Assembly (NCBI GenBank): GCA_963674755.2
Contig: CAXXVS010000002.1
Coordinates: forward strand, 1,120,001-1,184,000
Source of the DNA: Desulfobacterales bacterium
GTDB taxonomy: Bacteria; Desulfobacterota; Desulfobacteria; Desulfobacterales; UBA5852
DNA: 64,000 bases
Reading direction: 5' to 3'
Shown here: positions 34,835-64,000 of the stretch, piece after piece
How the letters are laid out: every line of letters starts with the position of its first letter
Position numbering within the stretch: the first letter of the stretch is position 1
Notes under the pieces: model-generated
What the model was told of the DNA's origin: nothing
Databases searched by the model: none
The model's input: the letters and a program-made list of their open reading frames with translations, nothing else
Program-made: the position numbers and the translations under genes

Positions 34835-34911
34835 CGGGAAGTGGCTCAGCCTGGTAGAGCACAGCGTTCGGGACGCTGGGGTCGCTGGTTCAAATCCAGT
34901 CTTCCCGACCA
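34835..34911 (+). tRNA. tRNA-Pro(CGG); probable prophage attachment site
   Basis: CGGGAAGTGGCTCAG...CAGCG TT-CGG-GA CGCTG...GGTTCAAATCC...CCCGACCA. Confidence 0.97.
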
Positions 34912-49869: not shown

Positions 49870-50574
49870 TCAGGGACGAGGAATCGGTTCCCAGTTTTGG
49901 TTTCCCCCATGATAATGAAAATAGGCTAAATGCAAAGCATTATGTCTATCCTCAAGTGGGTTAATAGTGTTCCAATCATAAGGAACATCATTTAGTGAAA
50001 CACTATATAATCGAGAAGAGAGGCAATAATATCTCCCTATATCGCTTTGCTCAACTACATAGTTGAAATTAATGACAGCGCTACTAAATGCTTGCAATGA
50101 AATTGATTCCAACCCAATTACTTTAGAATCTTTTATGGAAACAATGCCGGCATTGTTCTGCCAGTCAAAATTCGTAAAATCAAATATTCTAAGTTCAATT
50201 GTTACGCAGGGTGCATCTAAATCGCCGCTGTTTCGAACTGTGCAAGATATTTTTCGAGTTTCTCCAACCGGTCCAATCATAACTGCGCCAAGAAACTCTT
50301 GAGATATGTCTGTAGAGTGAACAGGATGAGTACACCCAGCATAGCATATATCTCTTATATCCTTTGTAAATTCGATTGGTCGTATTCCTTCATCATGTGT
50401 ATGGGTTTTTACATGGAGAAATGAATTCCCGATAAACACACCTGGCTTTTTTTTCAAAGAATTTGGAATCCTTTTCGTTTCTCTATTTTGCGTTTCTTTT
50501 AATTTTAAAATTGTTTTATATGTTTTATTGAGCTTCGATTTGGGGTTGGTGATAATATCTTTAGTAATCGGCAT
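49870..50574 (-). CDS. Moron gene 2: hypothetical protein with CARDB/Ig-like domain
   Basis: AT-rich; RBS AAGGAG; D.G.RP, STDI, V.NSG, YCL.SR and DRH.A patterns. Confidence 0.65.
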   Translation of the reverse strand: MPITKDIITNPKSKLNKTYKTILKLKETQNRETKRIPNSLKKKPGVFIGNSFLHVKTHTHDEGIRPIEFTKDIRDICYAGCTHPVHSTDISQEFLGAVMIGPVGETRKISCTVRNSGDLDAPCVTIELRIFDFTNFDWQNNAGIVSIKDSKVIGLESISLQAFSSAVINFNYVVEQSDIGRYYCLSSRLYSVSLNDVPYDWNTINPLEDRHNALHLAYFHYHGGNQNWEPIPRP

Positions 50575-50587
50575 AACGGACTCCTTA

Positions 50588-52420
50588 TTATATAATATCT
50601 TCATTTACTGGGAGATTATCCAAATCAATCGCAGGGAAAAGATCACTATCTGTTTCTTTTAATTTCCAACATTTGTAACCTATCCCTCTATCGCCATCTA
50701 AATTAAAATTCGGTATGTTTTTTTCTTCCTCATACAACCTTTTTAAGAGAGTTACTGTAAAATCAGGTGCATTCCCAAAACCATACTTATCTAAACAACT
50801 ACCTAAAGGATCATTGGACGATGAATTATTCTGTACTCCGTATTCCTCTCTAAGGTCATCTTCCGTAATACTGTCCACGATGTCTAAAAGGTCCCCGTTT
50901 GATCTGAAATCTCCGTTGATATACCAATGGTAACTTTTACGAAAATAGGTAAAAGGACTAACTAACCTTGATCTAGTTTCAATATCATCGGAATTTGCTG
51001 GAAATAATAAATGACCAGCACCATTCAAATCTACACCAGCATTGAATAGTTTAGTATGCGGATATTTTTTACTGCTAGCAATATAGTATTCATTATGGTC
51101 TGGTTTGGTTGGATCAAGCATATGCTGTATAAACCCATTACTCAAATGACTATCCAGTGGATAGCCCAAACCATTCAGAGCAATTCCCAATCTGAAATGG
51201 GAATATGCAGTAAACAAATACTCATAGATCAATGATATATAAAATCGTAGAGGTGATAGGGCAATAGTTGTTATAGCTCCTGCAATAAAATCTGCTAAAG
51301 CTGCTGCTAACAACAACGGGCATAGAATCGCTGCGGCGATTGCGGTAAATATGCCTAATATTCCCCCACCGCCAGCATCAAAAGAGTCAGGTATAAGATC
51401 GGATATTCCATCTATATTTCTGACAAATGTATCAAACGCCTCTTGAAGTTCTTGAGTTAGAGAATATGGTTCTGGTTGAGGAAGAGTACCAGTAGATGTA
51501 GTTGCTTTAAACCATTTAAACCAATACCAATATGATTCTTCGATATGTTTTAATTCGATTTTTTCTGCGAACAATCCATTATAAATTGTGTTCATACCTT
51601 CTTTTATATACTTTTGTAGTTCTTCTGGAAGAATACCTTCCTTATGTCCTGTCCCGAAACTAAATTTTTTATACAAATTGCTTCGGACAAAGTCGCCATC
51701 ACAAAACAATTTGTAGGCAGCAACATCTTGAAAGGACTCAGCCACTTTATGACGTTGTGGTTGATATCGATATGGACCTCCAGCAACCATGTTTACAAAG
51801 GGATGCCCTACAACGTCGGAGGCAATATGTGTAAGATATCCCAATGCATACGCATGCAGATTATTCCCTGGTTCCGCTTTTTTCAGTAAGAACTCTGCAA
51901 ATTCCCCAGTTCTACGATAGTGTAATCTATCAAACCACCACCATTTTGTAGGGTTGTCACCATTCTGAATTGGATGTCCAAGCATTTGAAATAGGTTATG
52001 AGATTCGATAATATATAACTGGACTTTAGCTTCCACGGTAGAATGCAAAGCACCTACTAGTTGATGAATCTGATTAACTAAGTCGTTTATTTCGCTTGTT
52101 AATGATGATGCTCGTTCTATTCTATCCTTGGCTTCTCTAATTGGTTTGATAATTTTATCAATTTTTTCTTTAAATTCTTGTACAAATACAGATACATCTT
52201 TGTACGCAGTTGCTAAATTACTGATTGGCATCCCAGATGCTAATTCAATGTCTTTTGGATTAAAGAATAAAAAATCAGGCCCAAGTGTGCCAGCGTGCAT
52301 ATAATTCGAATAATCTTCCATTTCTTGTTTTATATGACTAATTAATATCCTATCAGACAATTTGGATAAGTACCGATTAACTTCCTTTGCAACAATATAA
52401 TGTATTGCAGGCCCTGACAT
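50588..52420 (-). CDS. Moron gene 1: zinc-dependent phospholipase C/nuclease P1-fold protein
   Basis: N-terminal SGPAIH, GPDFLF, LH, LGYLTHIASDVVGHPFV and RHKVAE Zn ligands; long hydrophobic segment; RBS GGAGG. Confidence 0.8.
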   Translation of the reverse strand: MSGPAIHYIVAKEVNRYLSKLSDRILISHIKQEMEDYSNYMHAGTLGPDFLFFNPKDIELASGMPISNLATAYKDVSVFVQEFKEKIDKIIKPIREAKDRIERASSLTSEINDLVNQIHQLVGALHSTVEAKVQLYIIESHNLFQMLGHPIQNGDNPTKWWWFDRLHYRRTGEFAEFLLKKAEPGNNLHAYALGYLTHIASDVVGHPFVNMVAGGPYRYQPQRHKVAESFQDVAAYKLFCDGDFVRSNLYKKFSFGTGHKEGILPEELQKYIKEGMNTIYNGLFAEKIELKHIEESYWYWFKWFKATTSTGTLPQPEPYSLTQELQEAFDTFVRNIDGISDLIPDSFDAGGGGILGIFTAIAAAILCPLLLAAALADFIAGAITTIALSPLRFYISLIYEYLFTAYSHFRLGIALNGLGYPLDSHLSNGFIQHMLDPTKPDHNEYYIASSKKYPHTKLFNAGVDLNGAGHLLFPANSDDIETRSRLVSPFTYFRKSYHWYINGDFRSNGDLLDIVDSITEDDLREEYGVQNNSSSNDPLGSCLDKYGFGNAPDFTVTLLKRLYEEEKNIPNFNLDGDRGIGYKCWKLKETDSDLFPAIDLDNLPVNEDII

Positions 52421-53148: not shown

Positions 53149-55029
53149 TTACCAGTTATGGACCCAATTCTTACGCCTTGCCGTAGGCTTCCGCCTGATC
53201 GTCGCCGGTCGTTTCGTTTCCTGGCGGATCGGATGTTCCTGTTTTTGGGCCGCCGCCATCTTGGCCGCGATTCTCCGCCGAATGATATCGTATTTAGGCG
53301 ACAGGATAACACGCGCGACATAGGCGTACACCCGGCAATCAAGCGCTTCGTTGCGGCCGCCCTTTTTCTTAAGGCGCCATTCATAATAGCGCTGCCCCTT
53401 GCTGTATTTCGTGACACGGTGTTCGGCCGTCAGCATTTCGAAATATTTATCCGGGTAATGGTCCGGGAAATGACAAAAGCCCGGCCCCGGCGTATCGTTT
53501 TGCAGCCGGGCATAAATCGTTTCCTTGGCGACGTCGGTTCCGATCGGGAAAAGCTTGACCCCTTTGACAAGGGACTTTTTGGACGGCTTGGACACAAGCG
53601 GCCCGCCGGGTGTCGAACGCCCCTTTACGGCATAGATCCGGCGCCCCTGGCGCGGTTTGACGAAGGTTTCGACCATATGGGAATGCGCGCCGTGGTCGAT
53701 GCAGGCGCAGGCGATCCGAAAGCGCGCCGGTCCCCTGGTGAACGTTCGCTTGAGCTGTTCGTCGAGCTGGTCCCATACGTCGGCGCGCTCCGTATCGCCA
53801 TGCAAAACGACATAATCGAGCGACCATGATTCATCGCCCATGCCCCAACCGACGATTTCGAGTTCGATCCGATCGTCCTGAATGTCGGCGCCAGATGTTA
53901 TAACCAAGACACCGTCGGGCGCCGTGCCTTCCGAAATAGCGTCTTTCCTTTTGTCGAATATTTCGATTGTTTCGACGCCTTTTCCCTTTTCTTCCCAATC
54001 TTCGCCAAGGTCGGTATTGGTCCATGTCTTCAATTTCTCCGTGTCGCCCGTGTTTTTGAAATATTGGTTCGCCTCCAGGAATCGCTTGGCGATCATTTCC
54101 CACTTGGCCCCTGGTGAAAACGAATAGGCCGCCCAAAGATGAAAGCCGGCATGGCCCATATATTCCCGCGTCGCCCGCCACTCGCCGGCGTCGACCATGG
54201 CCCGTTGCTGCTTCTGGGGTATCTTGCCGGCGCAATTTTCACATTCATAATAGATCCGGCTAAGGTTGTTTCTGTCCGGGAATTGGATCCTGGACCACTG
54301 CAAAACCTGGAAGTGGCCGCAAATCGGGCAAGGGACGAACCGAAACCGCCGGTCTGATTCCTCGAAGGAATCCGTTACGCGCGACATATCCTTCACCGTC
54401 GGCGTCGACCCGATAACGCTCAGGCGGTTCCAAAAGGTTTCGGTCCGCTTTTCCCCCAGGGTGATTTGATCGCCTTCCTGGCCGGCCGCCACGGGATAGC
54501 CGTTGACTTCGTCGAAATAGACGATGCGGACCGTCAGGCGCCGGAAGCCGCGCGCCGAATTGGCGCCGATAATGTTCAGCGTCCCGCCGGGGTAGCTCTT
54601 TTTCATGATCGTGTTGCCGGAATCGCGGGATTTCGCGTCGGCGACCAACCCGGTCAGGCATGGCGTGTCGCGGATCATGGGTTCGACTTCGTCGCGGGAG
54701 TAACCTTTGCCGTCCTCGATGGTCGGCTGAACCACCAGTTGCGAGCATGGGTCGTGCTCGATGTGGTAGGCGATCGCGCAGTTGATCATTTTGGTGTAGC
54801 CGACCCGCGCCGACTTTTTCCAGGTGACCTTGTGGTTGCGCAGGTCGGTTATGGCGTCCATGGGGCCGCGCTGATAGGAATAGGTCCGCCACTTGCCGGG
54901 CTCCGCCGCCGATTCCGGCGACAGATAGAACTTTTCATCGGCCCATTCCGAGAGATTCAGGTTCGGCGCCGGAATAATGACCCGCGAATGTTCAACGACA
55001 AAGTCACGCGCGTCCGCTACCTGGTACAA
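53149..55029 (-). CDS. Terminase large subunit (lambda gpA family)
   Basis: LSEWAD, KSARVGYTK (Walker A), YFDEV, GSTPT, VPCP.CG, GADIQDDR, NEALDC.VY. Confidence 0.95.
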   Translation of the reverse strand: MYQVADARDFVVEHSRVIIPAPNLNLSEWADEKFYLSPESAAEPGKWRTYSYQRGPMDAITDLRNHKVTWKKSARVGYTKMINCAIAYHIEHDPCSQLVVQPTIEDGKGYSRDEVEPMIRDTPCLTGLVADAKSRDSGNTIMKKSYPGGTLNIIGANSARGFRRLTVRIVYFDEVNGYPVAAGQEGDQITLGEKRTETFWNRLSVIGSTPTVKDMSRVTDSFEESDRRFRFVPCPICGHFQVLQWSRIQFPDRNNLSRIYYECENCAGKIPQKQQRAMVDAGEWRATREYMGHAGFHLWAAYSFSPGAKWEMIAKRFLEANQYFKNTGDTEKLKTWTNTDLGEDWEEKGKGVETIEIFDKRKDAISEGTAPDGVLVITSGADIQDDRIELEIVGWGMGDESWSLDYVVLHGDTERADVWDQLDEQLKRTFTRGPARFRIACACIDHGAHSHMVETFVKPRQGRRIYAVKGRSTPGGPLVSKPSKKSLVKGVKLFPIGTDVAKETIYARLQNDTPGPGFCHFPDHYPDKYFEMLTAEHRVTKYSKGQRYYEWRLKKKGGRNEALDCRVYAYVARVILSPKYDIIRRRIAAKMAAAQKQEHPIRQETKRPATIRRKPTARRKNWVHNW

Positions 55030-55496
55030 TCCTCGACCCCCTTCGCCATATCGATCAAGGTTTCGTCTATGATCGCCTTCGCTTCGATAAACAGCCGCCG
55101 GCGTTCATCCGAATCGTCCACCATGGCCGACAGTCGCGATGGAAGCCCGGACAATTTTGTTTTAAAGCTCACCAGAAGCGTTGACAGTTCCCGGCCGACC
55201 TCGGCCGCCTCCAAAAGTTCACCGCGCCGCCTGGCGTTTTCAAGCTCCAATTTGTCGGCGCGCTCCTTTTCCGCCCGGGCGCGCTCTTTTTCGAAATCAA
55301 TATCGCGTTCAAACCCGTTTTCAGCAAAAGGCACATTACAATAAATTGCTTCAAGGGCTTTTACAGAATCCCAGCTATATGACTTGCCTTTTTCTCCTGA
55401 TTCAGCGGGCTTTAATCTCGCAGATTCAAGACGGGCGCGGATTACCCGATATGTCTTCCCGGTCAGACGACTTAATTCCGAATAGCTGACATCCAT
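55017..55496 (-). CDS. Terminase small subunit (Nu1-like)
   Basis: N-terminal wHTH; ERAR..KERADKLELEN..RRGEL coiled coil; LPSRL. Confidence 0.88.
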   Translation of the reverse strand: MDVSYSELSRLTGKTYRVIRARLESARLKPAESGEKGKSYSWDSVKALEAIYCNVPFAENGFERDIDFEKERARAEKERADKLELENARRRGELLEAAEVGRELSTLLVSFKTKLSGLPSRLSAMVDDSDERRRLFIEAKAIIDETLIDMAKGVEDCTR

Positions 55497-55562
55497 AAAA
55501 TTTCCCGAAAAGTTTTACTAGGGGTTGTGTTGCCTTGAAAAACCCCTGCGACTAATTTTTCA

Positions 55563-55610
55563 CCGCGCTCTCCGCGTTACCCTCGGTGGAGCGTTCCAGA
55601 AGGACCCGTA
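55563..55610 (-). other. Putative cos region (cosQ-like GGGTCCT + cosN-like segment)
   Basis: Minus strand TACGGGTCCTT...GGTAACG...CGCGG upstream of the small terminase, resembling the lambda cosQ/cosN layout. Confidence 0.65.
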
Positions 55611-55855
55611 TCTTTTAATTTTGGTTATATTTCAGCATGTTATAGACATCGTTCGATAGCCCCCCTTCCCCGGGCAATTTTTCTTAACTTTTACTCATCA
55701 TCTGAGGCGCCATATTAGACGCCAAGCAAAACGAATGCGGAACCATAGCCCCCCTTCATAAAGTGTATTGAGGATGGCCTCGCTTTGTTTCCGGCGGCCT
55801 TTCGCGACTTCCTTCCGAATCTTTTTTACGAGTCTCTTTTTCAAAGTCCCCCCTT

Positions 55856-56449
55856 TTACCGTCTCGCCGTATCGAGCGCCTTCGACAGTGACCGCGCAAA
55901 GTTGCGCTTAAACCTGGCGCGAACCGTCTTGACGGCCGTCCGCTTGAATCCGAAGCGCGGCGATATGTGCGCGGTCTTTGTCCGGATGAACAGCAATTCA
56001 ACGACCTGCTTGCGCTTCGGTCCCTTGCGCCGGTAGATGCCTGTCTTCGTTGAAAATGTTTTGCGCTGCTTGAGCATGACCGCCGCACCGCCTGATTTGC
56101 GCCGGGACTTGGGGACTTTGGACGTGGGGACCAGAAGGTTTTTAGATTTCATAGGCCGCTTGGTTCCGCCTTCCTCCTGCAATCGGGCGAAGGGGGCTTC
56201 GGTATAGACCCGCGCCGATAAACTTGTTTTCTTCGCCGGGCGGATCTTGATCCCGGTCGGTTGCTGTTTGAGCCACCATTTCTTTGTCACGTTGAAGACG
56301 TGCGGAATGTGTTTGATGATCGCCTTTTGAACGTCTTGCGCTGTCCAGGTCAAAGCCCGCGCCGTCGCGAAGGGCACTTGTTTCTTCTGGATCTTCGTCA
56401 ATCCGCGCGTGAATTCCCTGACGTTTGATCGAACGCTGATTTTCAGCAT
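55856..56449 (-). CDS. Phage morphogenesis/tail-completion-like basic protein
   Basis: KQVPFATARALT.TA..., QEEGG.K; very basic; precedes cos. Confidence 0.65.
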   Translation of the reverse strand: MLKISVRSNVREFTRGLTKIQKKQVPFATARALTWTAQDVQKAIIKHIPHVFNVTKKWWLKQQPTGIKIRPAKKTSLSARVYTEAPFARLQEEGGTKRPMKSKNLLVPTSKVPKSRRKSGGAAVMLKQRKTFSTKTGIYRRKGPKRKQVVELLFIRTKTAHISPRFGFKRTAVKTVRARFKRNFARSLSKALDTARR

Positions 56450-56470
56450 CGTTCCCCGCTTCCTTGGCCT

Positions 56471-56503
56471 TTTTTTGATCCGTTAATATTACGTTATCAG
56501 GAT
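56471..56503. repeat. Putative recombination site A (direct repeat with 58349-58381)
   Basis: TTTTTTGATCCGTTAATATTACGTTATCAGGAT; 30/33 identical to site B; imperfect palindrome. Confidence 0.75.
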
Positions 56504-56592
56504 TAAAAACCCTTAGCCGTATTGGCTTTGCGCGCTAACCATGTCAGGACAATTTTGTTCATCGAACCTTTTTCATCCATTCGGGTTTCCCC

Positions 56593-56742
56593 TTAAAGAA
56601 CGCCTTCCATTTCGGCCGCTCGCGCCGCCGCATCCTCGCTGCATTGCAATTCGAAAAGGCAGTCGTCACAAATGCAATATCCGGCTTCCGCTTCGCTAAC
56701 GTTCTCGTCCGTTCCGCATCGATAACAGCATTTATCTTCCAT
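56593..56742 (-). CDS. Small Cys-rich (zinc-finger-like) protein, 49 aa
   Basis: Hand translation MEDKCCYRCGTDENVSEAEAGYCICDDCLFELQ...; overlaps the upstream stop; below the ORF-track cutoff. Confidence 0.55.
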   Translation of the reverse strand: MEDKCCYRCGTDENVSEAEAGYCICDDCLFELQCSEDAAARAAEMEGVL

Positions 56743-56959
56743 TGGCTTCCCTTCGCTGAATAGCGGATCCGCCGGCCATGACGATTACTGACAAGCGTTC
56801 GTCATCCGATTCGACCTTGACGATCCTGATGTTCCCGCCGGTAACCGCATTGCCGGCGATCACCAGCGCCGCGCTGAATTTGTCTACGGCAAACATAGAG
56901 CCCGGTTGATTCCGGGTGAATTCGTCAACGGTTTCGAAATACGATAGTTGGTATTCCAT
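56732..56959 (-). CDS. Hypothetical phage protein
   Basis: 75-aa ORF coupled to the ParB-like gene. Confidence 0.5.
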   Translation of the reverse strand: MEYQLSYFETVDEFTRNQPGSMFAVDKFSAALVIAGNAVTGGNIRIVKVESDDERLSVIVMAGGSAIQRREANGR

Positions 56960-56962
56960 GGC

Positions 56963-57937
56963 TTAGCCTTCGCTGAGGACGGCCCGCTCCCGGACCACGT
57001 TTTGTCTATGTTCCTTCGCCGCTGCTTCGTAGCAAGGCCCGCAAAGGTCCGGCTTGTCGACCTTTTCGCCGCATTCCGGGCAGCAATAACGCCCGTCTTC
57101 GTCGGGTTCCTGTTCCCAAAGCGGTTTCTGGTTCGGTTTCACCGGGTTGATAGTGATCCGGATGGACTCGGCATCAAAGCCGGCATGGTGAATCGCGGTT
57201 AAGATCTCAGGGTCCGAAAGGACTTTTCGCAACGGTTCACAAGAGGCGCCCTTGAATCCGGTTTCGCGCAAATCGCCCTTTTTGAATGACAAAACCAATT
57301 TCCGCGCCTTCGGCTTCGCCCGGGCCTTGGTCAATTCCTGTTTTTGGTTGTCGATCTTGCCGTCGGATTCTTTGGCGATCTTCTGCGCCTGGCCGATGGT
57401 GATGTCGCCGGCGTCCACGGCCGCCTTGACCTCCGGCGAAGCATCGGCCAGCGCCAAGCGGTTGCGGACATGGCTGACCGACTTGCCGGACCGGGCCGCG
57501 ATCACCCTGACATCGATGCCCCAGTTCGCCAGGCGACGGAAGGCGGCCGCTTCCTCGGTCGCCGTGAAGGCCTTGCCGCCGTTGGATGCGATCGCTGTAA
57601 AGAAAAGCTCCGCTTCGCCGGCCCCGCGCCGGGCCACGATGACCGGGACGGACTGGAGCTCGGCGCCCTCGCTGATCGCCCGCAGGGCCGCCCGCAGCCG
57701 GCGTTCACCGTCCACCAGCTCCAGGCGCTTATCCAGGGTTTTGCGGACCAGCAGCGGCGGGAGCGTCCCGCCCGCCTTGATGAATTCGACCAGGTCTTCT
57801 TCGCCGTCGAAATCCCTTCGCGGGTTCCAGCCCTCGACGATTTCGATATGGTCCGGGGCGATATGGAAAACGTCGGACCGGCGGACCACTTCACAGACAT
57901 CGCCTAAAACGTGTTTGGGGATCTTATTGGCGGTCAT
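56963..57937 (-). CDS. ParB/Srx-domain protein with HTH and C-terminal Cys4 ribbon
   Basis: WNPR, LPPLLV, LVDGERRLRAA, HTH IAARSGKSVSHVRNRL.L, CPEC...CGPC. Confidence 0.88.
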   Translation of the reverse strand: MTANKIPKHVLGDVCEVVRRSDVFHIAPDHIEIVEGWNPRRDFDGEEDLVEFIKAGGTLPPLLVRKTLDKRLELVDGERRLRAALRAISEGAELQSVPVIVARRGAGEAELFFTAIASNGGKAFTATEEAAAFRRLANWGIDVRVIAARSGKSVSHVRNRLALADASPEVKAAVDAGDITIGQAQKIAKESDGKIDNQKQELTKARAKPKARKLVLSFKKGDLRETGFKGASCEPLRKVLSDPEILTAIHHAGFDAESIRITINPVKPNQKPLWEQEPDEDGRYCCPECGEKVDKPDLCGPCYEAAAKEHRQNVVRERAVLSEG

Positions 57938-58328
57938 GGCTATGAGGCCCTTCCTTGGCCGTCGATGAAAACTTCCCGACGGGGATTTCGGCATTGATTC
58001 TGCCTGATTCGGCCCTGACGACGATTTTTCCGACAAAGAAGTCGATCCATTTGTCGCCGTAGGCAACGCGGATATCGCCGCACTCGGCCGCGAGGCGCGG
58101 CGCCTGATACGGCCGCTCGAATATCATGACCTGGTTGTCGGATGGCATGGGCGCCGTCGCGGCAATCGTTTCGATGGCCGCCTTGCCGGTTTCCCAGATC
58201 TGACGGGCCTCTTGGGCGCTGATGGGCTCCGCGCTGATGTCATCGATGAATTGTTCCCATTCGACATCTTCGGGCCGGTTCCCCGGGATGTCGGATTCGC
58301 TGACGCCTGGTGGTAGGTTTGACAGCAT
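57924..58328 (-). CDS. Hypothetical phage protein
   Basis: MLSNLPPGVSESDIPGNRPED start; RBS GGGGG. Confidence 0.6.
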   Translation of the reverse strand: MLSNLPPGVSESDIPGNRPEDVEWEQFIDDISAEPISAQEARQIWETGKAAIETIAATAPMPSDNQVMIFERPYQAPRLAAECGDIRVAYGDKWIDFFVGKIVVRAESGRINAEIPVGKFSSTAKEGPHSHDRQ

Positions 58329-58348
58329 GATGACCCCCTTTTTGCCTG

Positions 58349-58381
58349 TTTTTTGCTCTGTTAATATTAAGTTATCAGGAT
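58349..58381. repeat. Putative recombination site B (direct repeat with 56471-56503)
   Basis: TTTTTTGCTCTGTTAATATTAAGTTATCAGGAT; 1878 bp from site A. Confidence 0.75.
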
Positions 58382-58734
58382 CGGAAATCCGCATCCGCCA
58401 AGGGTTTGCGGCCGCTGCATCCCTGGAGGAATTTCCAGCGTTCAGGAGTTTTTCCGATGGCGCATTCGATCACCCGCGCGCCGTAGGTCGTGCCGGAAAA
58501 CAGCTCGTTTTGATCCCAAACCGCGCGGTCAAAGCGCGCCGATGTCTTGAAGGCGGCCTCGATCAGGGCCGCATCCCCGTTGAACAGCTTGGCGAAGTGC
58601 CGGCAAAGGGAAACGTCTCCCTGCTCGGCTTCCTCCCGCCGTTGGGTTTCGTTGTGATAGAGCCGCCGGAAAAGCGCGGTCCCCCGCTCCCGGAAAGAAT
58701 CCTCGATCAGTCGGATCATTCGCTTTTGGTCCAT
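58375..58734 (-). CDS. Stand-alone primase-polymerase helix-bundle-like domain protein
   Basis: D.SLC..FA....GD...I...F..S....R..WD......TYG...I..AI pattern of NrS-1-type primpol helical domains. Confidence 0.6.
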   Translation of the reverse strand: MDQKRMIRLIEDSFRERGTALFRRLYHNETQRREEAEQGDVSLCRHFAKLFNGDAALIEAAFKTSARFDRAVWDQNELFSGTTYGARVIECAIGKTPERWKFLQGCSGRKPLADADFRS

Positions 58735-58748
58735 GGTCCCCTCCCCTT

Positions 58749-59726
58749 TCAGTCCAGAATACCCCCGCCGGGGTTGTTCATGATCTCACCGTCCTCGTGG
58801 TAGCCGATCACCACGGCCACGGTCTTGTGGGTCGTCATCTGCATCACGTCCCGGATCGGGATCCCCTGGCGCCCGGCCTCGGTCACGAAGCCCCGCCGCA
58901 GCGAGTGCCCGGCGTAGTGCTTGGGATCCCGCCCGCAGCGTTCCACCCGCTCTTTCACGATGCCGACGACGGTTTCCGGGGTGATCGGGTCATCCGTGAT
59001 CCGGCCGCGATGAATGGCGCGGAAGAGAAACCCGTCGGTAATCCGCGAAGCCCGCAACCAGGCCGTAAGCGCCTTTTTCGCCGTTCCCCGTATGGGCAGC
59101 CGGTAGCCGTGCCCGCCCTGGTCGGTCTTGGAGCGGGTCAGGTTGTAGATATAGCCGCCCCGCACCGCGTCCAGATCGTCCAGGCGCGCGGCCGCGACCT
59201 CGCTCCGGCGGCGCCCCCCGGAGCCGAAGGCAAACAGCAGGATCGCCCGGTCCCGGGTGTCTTTCAGCGACGTTCCGAAGGTGTCGACCATCTCATCCAG
59301 CAGCTTTTTGGTGATGGCCCGCTTCACTTGCGGCCGGTCGCCGGCCTTGGCCCGGGCCGCCTTGGATTTGGTCATCACCAGGCGCACCCGCCCGCCCTTG
59401 CACGGGTTCTCGGCGTCCTCGATGCCGCGCGACTGATGGGCGTAGGACAGCGAGGACAGGCGCCGTTCCACCGTGGCCACGGCATGGGGGCCGCGCTTGC
59501 GCTTGATGCCGGACGCCACCAGGATCTTGTCGTGTTCCGGGTCCAGGCCGTCCAGGTGGTCGGTGATGAAGCGGATCACCACGTCGGCCGCCACGGGATA
59601 GTGCGGGACCAGGCCCATGGTCACCTGCGCCCAGGCCCAGAAATATTTCATATCGCCGTCATGCGCCCGGTGGGTGTTCTCCGCCGTTCCCGCTTCGATG
59701 ATCCTGTCGATCCGGTCTTGGCTCAT
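58749..59726 (-). CDS. Tyrosine recombinase, Cre/TnpS-like
   Basis: Catalytic set GGRRRSE (R), SKTDQ (K), GHSLRRG (HxxR), THK (H), IGY (Y); N-terminal SAM-like AENT.RA...D..YF..W; ATGA overlap with the rep gene. Confidence 0.92.
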   Translation of the reverse strand: MSQDRIDRIIEAGTAENTHRAHDGDMKYFWAWAQVTMGLVPHYPVAADVVIRFITDHLDGLDPEHDKILVASGIKRKRGPHAVATVERRLSSLSYAHQSRGIEDAENPCKGGRVRLVMTKSKAARAKAGDRPQVKRAITKKLLDEMVDTFGTSLKDTRDRAILLFAFGSGGRRRSEVAAARLDDLDAVRGGYIYNLTRSKTDQGGHGYRLPIRGTAKKALTAWLRASRITDGFLFRAIHRGRITDDPITPETVVGIVKERVERCGRDPKHYAGHSLRRGFVTEAGRQGIPIRDVMQMTTHKTVAVVIGYHEDGEIMNNPGGGILD

Positions 59727-60550
59727 AGATCTCCGATTCCCTTCAAAAGTTCCCGGAAGCGCGGGTCCAGGGTGATTTCCCGCTTGAACTGCGCGGACCG
59801 CTCGATGGCCTCGCGCTCGTTGAAATTGCCGTTCACCGTGCGGATCGTGGCGTCCGCGTAGGCCCAGGGCTTGCCCGTGCGCACCGGCCAGGCTTTCTTC
59901 AGGCTGGCCAAGGTCTTCACGATCGCGCCGGGATGCGCGTTCCGGTTGGTCCAGTACTGCACCCACTGGAACACGTTGAAGTGCTTCCGGCTGCACACGG
60001 CCGCGATGGCCTCGCACAGCGCCACGATTTCGGCCGTCTCGGGGGCGTCTTTGTGGTGGAAAAGTTGACCGGGATTTTCGGGTTTGGGGACGGGTTCGGA
60101 AGGGGCGGCGCGGGCCTGGCCTGCGCCGTTGTTTTTAAAATCTACTTCTGTTTCTACTTCTAGGCGGACTTTTTTAGGATGTGAATCCGGCGCGTGTCCG
60201 GACAAGCTCGCGATTTGCTTGCGGGTGTATTCGTCGGCAAGCTCTTTTAATTTCGGGCAGTTGAGTTCTATTTGCTCCAGCCGTTTGTCGTGAAAAAGTC
60301 GGAAAAAAATGCGCTTTTTCTCCTGGTAAAACCCAAGTATAGTTCGGACTTTTCGCCAACTTATTCGGAACTTTTTCCTGAAATAGATCACCGAAAAGGT
60401 GTTTTTCCCCGGCCTCCGGGGGTCGAATTCGCGCGACATGATTTCCAAGGTCCTGAAATACACATAGTAGCCGTCCGGTCCGAAAACGCTGATCGCGTCA
60501 TCGATGTCGGGGTCGTCCCCGCTGTCCACCAGATGCTTGAACCATTTCAT
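59723..60550 (-). CDS. Phage replication initiator (Lin1244/DUF4373-like N-terminus)
   Basis: MKWFKH..D...DP....G..GY.VYF..LE; CPKL....DEYT; EVETEVD linker; C-terminal PWAY. Confidence 0.7.
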   Translation of the reverse strand: MKWFKHLVDSGDDPDIDDAISVFGPDGYYVYFRTLEIMSREFDPRRPGKNTFSVIYFRKKFRISWRKVRTILGFYQEKKRIFFRLFHDKRLEQIELNCPKLKELADEYTRKQIASLSGHAPDSHPKKVRLEVETEVDFKNNGAGQARAAPSEPVPKPENPGQLFHHKDAPETAEIVALCEAIAAVCSRKHFNVFQWVQYWTNRNAHPGAIVKTLASLKKAWPVRTGKPWAYADATIRTVNGNFNEREAIERSAQFKREITLDPRFRELLKGIGDL

Positions 60551-60804
60551 ACGCGGCGGCTTTGTCCTGAAACCGGGTGCCATTTGTATCTGTAGGGCCG
60601 GCCCCGGTCATGCCCCTCGTTCGTACCCGCCAACCAGGCGTCCTGTTGCGCGGAGCCCAAGGGGTACGGGCACGGCCCCACCGTGGCGGCCTCCCCCAGG
60701 TAGAATTTGAGCGCCGCCAGCACGCCCGCCTTGTATTCCGCGCTGCGCGGGTCCCGTTCGTTGGAAAAAGCCGCCTCGAACAATTCCTTCGCCGTCTTTT
60801 TCAT
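60547..60804 (-). CDS. Hypothetical phage protein
   Basis: RDPRS.EYKAG...CPY..G....DAW.AG..EG; ATGA-coupled on both sides. Confidence 0.6.
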   Translation of the reverse strand: MKKTAKELFEAAFSNERDPRSAEYKAGVLAALKFYLGEAATVGPCPYPLGSAQQDAWLAGTNEGHDRGRPYRYKWHPVSGQSRRV

Positions 60805-61220
60805 GACATTGCCTCCCGCACCCATTCCGCCGGCACGTCAAAGAGCCCCAGCCGCCCCGAACAGGGATGGAAGATTGTGGGCACGGCGCCTTCCATCACC
60901 AGCCCCATGGGGCCGAAGAACCAGAGTGACGGGTGTTCCGTAACGCAGTCGACCAAACGGGCGCGCCCCACGATACCGCCGGTATTGAAGTCTTTGGGAT
61001 GTGGATCGCGCCAGCCGAAGACGTTTCCCAGGGCCGCCAGAATCCAATCCAGTCCGTCGAAATCGAAGCGCTGGCCGGCGTGGATCGCCAACGGCCCCCG
61101 GTAGCGTGGCGGATATCGCCAGTCGCGGTTTTCAACGGGCTTTACCCCGTGAGCAAGGCACCAGGCCCAGGGCTGGCGCACGGACAAGCATTTGATCGTC
61201 GTCGTCATAGAGCACATCAT
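60801..61220 (-). CDS. ASCH domain protein
   Basis: LSVRQPWA...G.K.VENR.W...YRG.LAIHA; GIVG.A.LVDC; GRLGLF. Confidence 0.9.
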   Translation of the reverse strand: MMCSMTTTIKCLSVRQPWAWCLAHGVKPVENRDWRYPPRYRGPLAIHAGQRFDFDGLDWILAALGNVFGWRDPHPKDFNTGGIVGRARLVDCVTEHPSLWFFGPMGLVMEGAVPTIFHPCSGRLGLFDVPAEWVREAMS

Positions 61221-61549
61221 TTTCCCTCCGCGCGCAGTCCGTGCAGCACTGTGGCATGGCTGCGGTTGAATTCCCGGCCGATCTCCTCCAGCGTCGCCCC
61301 GATAATCTCACGGCAGTGAAGCATGGCCGCGTTTCGGGCACGCACCACCTGCCGCCTGCGGGACGTGGACGATAGGTCCCCCACGGAAACGCCGTGCTCG
61401 GCGGCTGCCCGGCGCTTGATATCCTCGTAGGAGGTGACGCGCCGCTCCAGCTCGTCAGCGCAGGCATCAAACGCGGCGGCCGTGGACTCGTGGCCGGTCC
61501 GGCGCAGCTCCCTGGCCTGCCTGCGCCAATGGCGGATCATCCCCACCAT
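61217..61549 (-). CDS. DnaA domain IV-like HTH protein
   Basis: GVSV.DL.S..R...VVRAR..AM..CRE....TLEEIG.EFNR.HATVLHG. Confidence 0.85.
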   Translation of the reverse strand: MVGMIRHWRRQARELRRTGHESTAAAFDACADELERRVTSYEDIKRRAAAEHGVSVGDLSSTSRRRQVVRARNAAMLHCREIIGATLEEIGREFNRSHATVLHGLRAEGK

Positions 61550-62264: not shown

Positions 62265-62295
62265 GAGATCCGCCCTAAAGGCTTGATTTTGCTAC

Positions 62296-62333
62296 GTGCA
62301 CCCAGGTGCACCTAAGTGCACCAAGGTGCACCT
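62296..62333. repeat. Four 10-bp-phased GTGCAC palindromes
   Basis: GTGCACCCAG GTGCACCTAA GTGCACCAAG GTGCACCT. Confidence 0.9.
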
Positions 62334-63577: not shown

Positions 63578-63913
63578 ATGAAGCGCATTGCTTTGTTACT
63601 GATCTTTCTCGCCGTGCCCGCCTACGCCCTTGACTATTCGGTTGTCGAAAAGCGCCTGGCTTACCTCAACGACATCGAAGGCGTTGCCCAGGTCGCCTTC
63701 GAACGCAACAACGTCTTCATCGGGTTTGAAACCCTGCCGGACGACTATGAATCAATCGTCCGCGCCGCCGCCTTCCATGGCAACAAAGCATTAGGCCGCC
63801 GCGTCCATGTTTGGGCCTGCAAATACGATGCGGAAATAGCTCCTGATCGCTGGCCTGTTTATTGTTTCGCGACCGCTCAGAACGGCAAAGTCGTTAACTT
63901 CGAGAAGCCCTGA
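63578..63913 (+). CDS. Secreted/periplasmic hypothetical protein in the lysogenic operon
   Basis: RBS GGAGG; signal peptide MKRIALLLIFLAVPAYA; two Cys. Confidence 0.7.
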   Translation: MKRIALLLIFLAVPAYALDYSVVEKRLAYLNDIEGVAQVAFERNNVFIGFETLPDDYESIVRAAAFHGNKALGRRVHVWACKYDAEIAPDRWPVYCFATAQNGKVVNFEKP

Positions 63914-63916
63914 TAA

Positions 63917-64000
63917 ATGTCCGTCCATCAGCTAAAAGACGGCCGATGGATCGCCAAGTTTCCGAAAGGGACGCTCACCGACGACCCAGGCCGGACCCGC
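63917..64000 (+). CDS. Probable phage integrase, N-terminal arm-binding fragment (truncated by window)
   Basis: MSVHQLKDGRWIAKFPKG... resembles integrase N-termini; position downstream of cI at the prophage end. Confidence 0.55.
   Translation, partial: MSVHQLKDGRWIAKFPKGTLTDDPGRTR

Follow-up and report, generated by a model that had tools for sequence, protein, structure and literature searches.

Why would a temperate phage that integrates through one tyrosine recombinase carry a second one, followed downstream by two nearly identical direct repeats that bracket a ParB-like gene? The question is raised by a stretch of 64,000 nucleotides (hereafter the window) from a Desulfobacterales bacterium (GenBank assembly GCA_963674755.2, contig CAXXVS010000002.1, positions 1,120,001 to 1,184,000). 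The region lies in a lambdoid prophage that has a separate integrase, beginning at 63917, and replication and packaging genes as neighbors. A first-pass annotation, made by a model from the letters alone, recognized that the recombinase is distinct from this integrase, through which the phage indeed integrates, and proposed that the ParB block is a cassette excised or captured at the repeats. The best reading inferred here is a phage-borne module of TnpS/Cre type that lacks TnpT and whose site would serve as an entry and exit point for cargo. A family of such sites, alleles with and without the block, and different cargo in one relative are directly seen.

The recombinase and its paired sites

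The recombinase matches PF00589 (Pfam) and is recognizable as a relative of Cre by sequence (E=2e-8). The catalytic set is complete (R173, K200, H274, R277, H300, Y309), and the structure model (predicted local distance difference test, pLDDT, 92.2) has Cre as its top fold match, with a template modelling (TM) score of 0.74 vs. 0.46 for XerA; the enzyme is thus the intact Cre/TnpS-like recombinase that had been described. In a quick tree it groups with the enzymes of two phages, G698 and G018 (Shimodaira-Hasegawa-like approximate likelihood ratio test, SH-aLRT, 99), the TnpS/Xer join in that tree being flagged as a long-branch one. Translational coupling to the upstream gene, also noted before, is seen as an ATGA start/stop overlap, and the same gene pair occurs in loci L177 and L047. 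The assignment of that upstream gene as a replication initiator stands in part: ESM Atlas features of initiator type (0.95 to the Phage_rep_org_N and Lin1244_N clusters) and a C-terminal half 42% identical to a protein matching PHROG replisome-organiser families point to it, but the gene has no Pfam or PHROG match of initiator kind. The NrS-1 polymerase helix-bundle domain is normally a part of primases; here it forms a stand-alone open reading frame (ORF) of 119 aa, overlooked at first pass, between the recombinase and the right-hand repeat. All four homologues of this ORF are 119 aa long. Its 3′ end holds the accessory motifs of the nearby site, and its stop codon falls within the left arm.

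The two 33-bp direct repeats are where they had been placed, 1878 bp apart in the same orientation and identical at 30/33 bases. They are parts of longer sites, A and B (Table 1), that have GCAAA at −33 and AAATT at −57/−58 in common, and at both the core ends 31–32 bp ahead of the next start codon. A 22-nt core has two matches in the window at ≤3 mismatches, a pair reached in 0/100 shuffles, and at ≤4 mismatches it finds only A and B in the 6.7-Mb genome.

Table 1. Positions, in window coordinates, of the recombinase module, its sites and cargo, and the prophage landmarks.
Feature	Position	Strand	Remarks
Site A	56471..56555	−	core 56482-56498: GATAA, 7-bp spacer CGTAATA, TTAAC; 33-bp repeat 56471-56503
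Site A accessory motifs	GCAAA 56527-56531; AAATT 56551-56555	−	
Site B	58349..58434	−	core 58360-58376: GATAA, 7-bp spacer CTTAATA, TTAAC; 33-bp repeat 58349-58381
Site B accessory motifs	GCAAA 58405-58409; AAATT 58430-58434	−	
1878-bp segment missing in the related phage of X8	56493..58370		joint anywhere in 11 shared bases
11 shared joint bases	56493-56503 / 58371-58381		include the left arm/spacer border
Cre-fold TnpS-like tyrosine recombinase, 325 aa	58749..59726	−	complete catalytic set; without arm-binding domain
Probable phage replication initiator (replisome organiser)	59723..60583	−	ATGA overlap with recombinase
Stand-alone NrS-1 helix-bundle-domain ORF, 119 aa	58375..58734	−	PF22763, E=2.2e-8
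Hypothetical cargo gene, 134 aa	57924..58328	−	no Pfam, PHROG, NCBIfam or Atlas match; skipped in X3 variant
ParB-like protein, 324 aa (ParB_N and helix-turn-helix)	56963..57937	−	no ParA partner found
Cargo ORF, 75 aa	56732..56959	−	no family match at E≤0.01
Cys-rich cargo ORF, 49 aa	56593..56742	−	no family match at E≤0.01
First late gene, gpZ/HK97-gp10-like	55856..56449	−	small and large (lambda-type) terminase genes come next
tRNA-Pro, probable left attachment site	34835..34911	+	20/21-bp copy ~7.2 kb past window end (tentative right end)
Prophage integrase start, 377 aa, running out of window	63917..64000	+	

The nature of the repeats is best judged from relatives of the enzyme, for which 159 loci with recombinases 35–44% identical to that of the window were assembled (80 from genomes, 79 viral). 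An exact GATAA-N7-TTATC lies within 500 bp upstream of the enzyme in 126 of them, and control spacers of 5, 6, 8, and 9 bp give 0, 1, 1, and 0 matches. The site is present in 56/71 clusters at 90% identity and in 18/27 at 70%. The enzyme family is TnpS/TnpT-like, since a divergent KfrA_N gene of TnpT type accompanies the enzyme in 112/159 loci. The same core is found between tnpS and tnpT of TnXax1, where PMC4337579 places the presumed TnpS core; PMC4619425 describes a 23-bp core there and, for TnXocp1-type elements, variable cargo beside the rst region. The window sites depart from the family core at a single right-arm base. The evidence supports the repeats as target-type sites of this TnpS/Cre-type recombinase family, in line with the first-pass view of them as recombinase targets; the enzyme itself would bind and recombine them. 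Such an origin explains them better than host dif sites do. The description "dif-like" is not upheld: the spacer is 7 bp and there is no XerD-type arm, whereas the host dif candidate (C2:1005685-1005712, ~170 kb from the sites and near the GC-skew maximum at 1020682) has a 6-bp spacer and an XerD-type arm and has nothing but CTGATAA in common with the left arm of the phage sites. No TnpT-like gene turned up in the same genome (tblastn, four TnpT-like queries) or in the fetched G698 and G018 loci.

The site pattern has one viral match, within a coding region of an unrelated phage, which is put down to chance. Across the order the pattern matched 58/301 genomes at ≤3 mismatches, with 83 matches outside the own genome vs. 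~63 for a reversed control (hand count); seven of these, inspected by eye, showed ordinary genes, and the matches were rejected. Genome G012 has a family-type palindrome upstream in 3/3 of its recombinase homologue loci (L048, L049, L050), 1–2.4 kb away. At least one of these recombinases is apparently broken, and in two of the three loci the small genes between site and recombinase resemble toxin-antitoxin pairs. Four phage-like contigs (L009, L142, L191, L199) carry an enzyme of this family and no exact core nearby.

Alleles of the block and related phages

Contigs of four of the ten listed runs (X2, X3, X7, and X8) were compared with positions 54500–61500 of the window. In X8, which comes from another study and is ~95% identical, a 4184-bp contig of depth 3 joins 56492 to 58371, so that exactly 1878 bp are missing and one hybrid site is left; stretches that X8 leaves uncovered were given no weight as evidence beyond this joint. 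The joint is flanked by at least 255 aligned bases on each side, with differences at 93/1993 bases to the left and 32/718 to the right. X8 carries the site-A base at the spacer mismatch, which puts the crossover among the 11 bases common to both sites, from the left arm into the first base of the spacer. The arm/spacer border contained in them is the expected place of cutting for this class of enzyme, after Cre and Xer. The hybrid junction that the first-pass annotation predicted is therefore present in an independent sample. X3 has both site regions with a variant block between them: a 606-bp contig passes from 58326 into diverged ParB N-terminal sequence and skips the 134-aa gene. The same mosaic ParB occurs in protein P0123, indicating that homologous exchange also acts at the block. 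X7 gave short fragments only, one of which, starting at 56504, was treated as uninterpretable.

The second line of evidence is the IMG/VR provirus G698 (CheckV 95%), which resembles the window phage in its recombinase (44% identical), the C-terminus of its initiator (42%), its first late gene (67%), and its terminase (42%). The order is initiator, recombinase, one ORF, and a perfect core site; a second, direct site lies 36 bp before the same first late gene and agrees with the first at 40/45 bases, the spacers differing at base 1. Mapped as a circle, G698 has between its two sites an ASCH gene, the integrase with a probable excisionase, and a tRNA-Thr 3′ fragment, which by comparison with G018 would mark attP. 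Because this integration block lies between the sites on the circular map, in the provirus they flank the ~30-kb phage body. The comparison of relatives suggested at first pass thus yields a phage with other cargo between two such sites. GCAAA at −33 and AAATT at −57/−58 recur in all four sites of the two phages. Spacers match at 6/7 bases within each phage and at 2–3/7 between them, as expected if spacer homology matters, and the upstream flanks agree at 28/60 and 34/60. At the left end of G698 (L213:120-200) the tRNA-Thr 3′ fragment is joined to a sequence that reads like the start of a gene for a putative NAD-binding enzyme, suggesting integration at a secondary site.

With the own genome included, the recombinase is found in 3/251 genomes of the order and 1/401 of the phylum, the ParB in 1/251, and the late gene in 2/301; 16 other genomes of the family contain no long DNA match, and in the family of G018 1/4 genomes is positive. 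Phage G697 (CheckV 100%), with a late gene 64% identical, lacks both a recombinase match and a site ahead of that gene, and five further initiator-related viral loci are also without a recombinase match. Viral scans with the single protein and with alignment A1 returned no close relatives, a metagenome scan returned two loci at 35–36% identity, and relatives at 83–87% identity are available as proteins only. Equal lengths of their longest contigs (5444, 33729, 9009, 2385) suggest that relatives of the recombinase, the ParB, and the 119-aa ORF share contigs.

Proposed function, competing readings and prophage setting

We propose, at a probability of roughly 0.62, that induction yields initiator and enzyme together, that the enzyme then recombines its site from one copy of the circular genome to another, and that cargo has entered or left there. 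The module would comprise, in order, the initiator, the coupled recombinase, one ORF, and, at the early/late boundary, an rst-like site of ~85 bp made up of one-sided accessory motifs followed by arm, 7-bp spacer, and arm. Its basic job may be recombination between sister circles of phage DNA after the onset of replication, by dimer resolution or circle fusion. The site would double as the entry and exit point for cargo, the 1878-bp block ending in a second copy of it, and a single crossover where left arm and spacer meet could interconvert the filled and empty alleles while keeping the spacing of the downstream gene. That the enzyme binds and recombines the sites, which way events ran, and how the module serves replication are all predictions from sequence. 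The spacer mismatch and the missing TnpT helper probably make loss rare, and in this proposal cargo would change on an evolutionary scale and not at each induction. TnpS of Tn4651 alone reportedly joins molecules, resolution needing TnpT. If that rule holds, a phage enzyme without TnpT would favor capture and multimers at the expense of excision, in keeping with a stable filled allele.

Several points weigh against this proposal. The right arms of A and B, TTAAC, are one base off the family core, arm symmetry is weak (6–7/13), and the short core is common: the host genome has 61 matches with one mismatch and three that are exact. The 159 loci are for the most part kindred proteobacterial elements (35–44% identity), and at 60% clustering the site is present in just 7/15 clusters. 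Paired sites were found in only two phages; prophage G018 has the same gene order and enzyme and no recognizable site at either position, and G697, which is recombinase-free, has an exact core within a replication gene. The empty allele is one contig of depth 3 in 1/4 runs, and the position of its joint fits site-specific recombination and deletion at short repeats (microhomology) alike. X2, the probable source, shows the filled allele in one contig and no joint, as far as contigs go. Of the excisable cassette, what stands is the hybrid single-site allele with its operon intact; programmed excision is unproven.

A tentative extension, to which we give rather little credence, is that the replication-coupled enzyme and a slightly mismatched site pair form an exchangeable module slot in this phage lineage. 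Crossovers A × A and B × B would swap cassettes between co-resident phages, and A × B would occasionally drop the module; in G698 the same reaction could free the ~30-kb phage body without the integrase, or give a non-integrating variant.

Among the rival explanations, the one that survives best, though unlikely, is that the sites belong to the enzyme, one serving dimer resolution and the second a leftover of an old duplication or phage fusion, but that the recombinase does not move the block as a cassette, the empty allele having arisen by slippage or relaxed phage recombination between the 33-bp repeats. The spacer mismatch in both phages, the single contig with the empty allele, the absence of clear sites in G018, and the crossover inside the mosaic ParB gene of P0123 and X3, by which homologous exchange shapes the block, would all agree with it. 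In two distant phages, however, the cores are much better conserved than the flanks, which a functionless leftover would not require, and the joint lies at the arm/spacer border.

Considerably less probable is that the repeats are promoters or operators to which the recombinase or a phage regulator binds, thereby controlling the late operon and the cargo, with recombination incidental. Cores stand 31–36 bp ahead of start codons, in two phages the first late gene follows site A, and rst regions are reported to hold promoters (PMC7157771, PMC4619425). Set against this, no sigma-70-like promoter was found in 55400–60000, the spacer is variable across the family yet nearly identical within each pair, and an empty allele exists. 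A dual role as promoter and recombination site is possible.

Action of host XerC/XerD on dif-like sites, with the phage enzyme unrelated to them, is very improbable: CTGATAA is common to the host dif candidate and the left arm, and there are elements that exploit Xer although their overlaps are 7 bp long and their XerD arms poor, but the phage sites lack the spacer and arm of the host site, the 7-bp-spacer motif tracks the enzyme family, and the G698 sites are perfect family cores.

The last alternative concerns the cargo. Four genes lie between the sites, as annotated at first pass, the Cys-rich ORF being corrected to its present limits. A programmed lifestyle switch, in which the ParB block toggles between an integrated and a plasmid prophage, had been suggested; it would be favored by the ParB CTP-binding motif region, which appears intact, and by the integration module between the G698 sites, and is hardly credible given that the phage is integrated, through its separate integrase, while the block is present, that the ParA-type Walker motif KGGxGK[ST] is absent from the 36,362-bp prophage (a divergent ATPase could escape this motif search) and occurs in only 2/80 viral loci with related ParB, and that a ParB-like gene ahead of the terminase is the described ParB-Tls locus of tailed phages (PMC6536676). 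The missing motif and this known locus leave a plasmid state weakly supported in this phage. None of the 80 viral ParB loci carries the recombinase.

The prophage probably spans from the tRNA-Pro at 34835 to ~7 kb past the window end (36,362 bp were taken for motif searches), its right end being tentative. The 3′ end of the integrase is copied (159 bp) at C2:1184871-1189507, beside three copies of a 120–290-bp repeat, and similar pieces on C1, at about 1.29 Mb, adjoin a broken integrase; this remnant of a related element makes the right end uncertain. MqsR toxin, MqsA antitoxin, and a SecB-like chaperone follow one another at L051:6646-7980 (C2, ~5.6–7 kb past the window end), a probable toxin-antitoxin-chaperone module in the right-end cargo of the prophage, near an RNase H-like gene. 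Elsewhere, a low-GC (~35%) two-gene insert at 49870–52420, between terminase and head genes, encodes a zinc-dependent phospholipase C domain in one gene. In the early region, 62292–62331 holds three GTGCAC-containing repeats with a 10-bp period, possibly an operator or origin element. The neighbor of the repressor (63578–63913) is a small secreted-looking protein, with an apparent homologue, judged by eye, between the terminase genes of G698 (L213:1892-2284).

Comparison with known systems

The closest system is TnpS/TnpT-rst (Tn4651, TnXax1, TnXocp1), with which the phage module shares a Cre-related enzyme with intact catalytic residues, one-sided accessory sequence, the core GATAA-N7-TTATC (here with one mismatch per right arm), and variable cargo near the site, as in TnXocp1-type elements (PMC4619425). 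In contrast, the enzyme is just 24% and 27% identical to TnpS of Tn4651 and TnXax1, a divergent TnpT/KfrA_N-like gene is missing from the own genome, and the phage sites are downstream, paired, and direct. The setting is a lambdoid replication operon with phage neighbors; no TnpA turned up, although no search aimed at TnpA was made. The module would place a putative transposon-type resolution enzyme in temperate phages without its usual helper.

Like Cre of P1, the enzyme has the Cre fold, lacks an arm-binding domain, and is a phage enzyme apart from integration. Separation of dimers is the stated role of Cre (PMC8138268), and loxP is a nearly symmetric 13-8-13 site (PMC10250229). Unlike loxP, the phage sites have 7 bp between TAA and TTA, the weak arm symmetry given above, and accessory motifs; moreover, the window phage is integrated and its two sites bracket cargo. 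If active, the module would supply a Cre-fold enzyme together with paired sites of 7-bp spacer, a kind outside the reach of the 8-bp-spacer screen of PMC10250229 (about 500 predicted pairs).

The XerC/D-dif system differs in that the phage sites contain no 11-6-11 site with an XerD arm; the left arm shares its seven inner bases with the host dif candidate, and GATAA is also the core of the enzyme family itself. Pdif modules have inverted Xer sites with a 6-bp spacer. Integrons and pdif modules resemble the phage module in promoter-poor-looking cargo right behind a site near the recombinase, and in filled and empty alleles, which here differ exactly at the site (one contig). Unlike integrons, the module has one block and no attC-type hairpin array, and its TIGR02249 score of 15.8/265 bits is far under the IntI cut-off. 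The ParB-like gene sits in a variable slot just before the terminase, as in ParB-Tls (PMC6536676); here, in contrast, the block is bounded by recombination sites. Plasmid partition of the ParABS type differs in having a ParA ATPase next to ParB, for which the motif search of the prophage gave no candidate.

A search of the open-access literature found no description of phage cargo bracketed by two TnpS-type sites. Because natural filled and empty alleles nominate both a substrate and a crossover interval, the system is directly testable. If active, it would allow phage genomes to become mosaic at the early/late boundary by site-specific means, and maybe to gain or lose an integration module. 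The module works like TnpS-rst and Cre-loxP and belongs to neither, because it has no TnpT or transposon context and its site is not 13-8-13; it is also distinct from integrons and dif modules.

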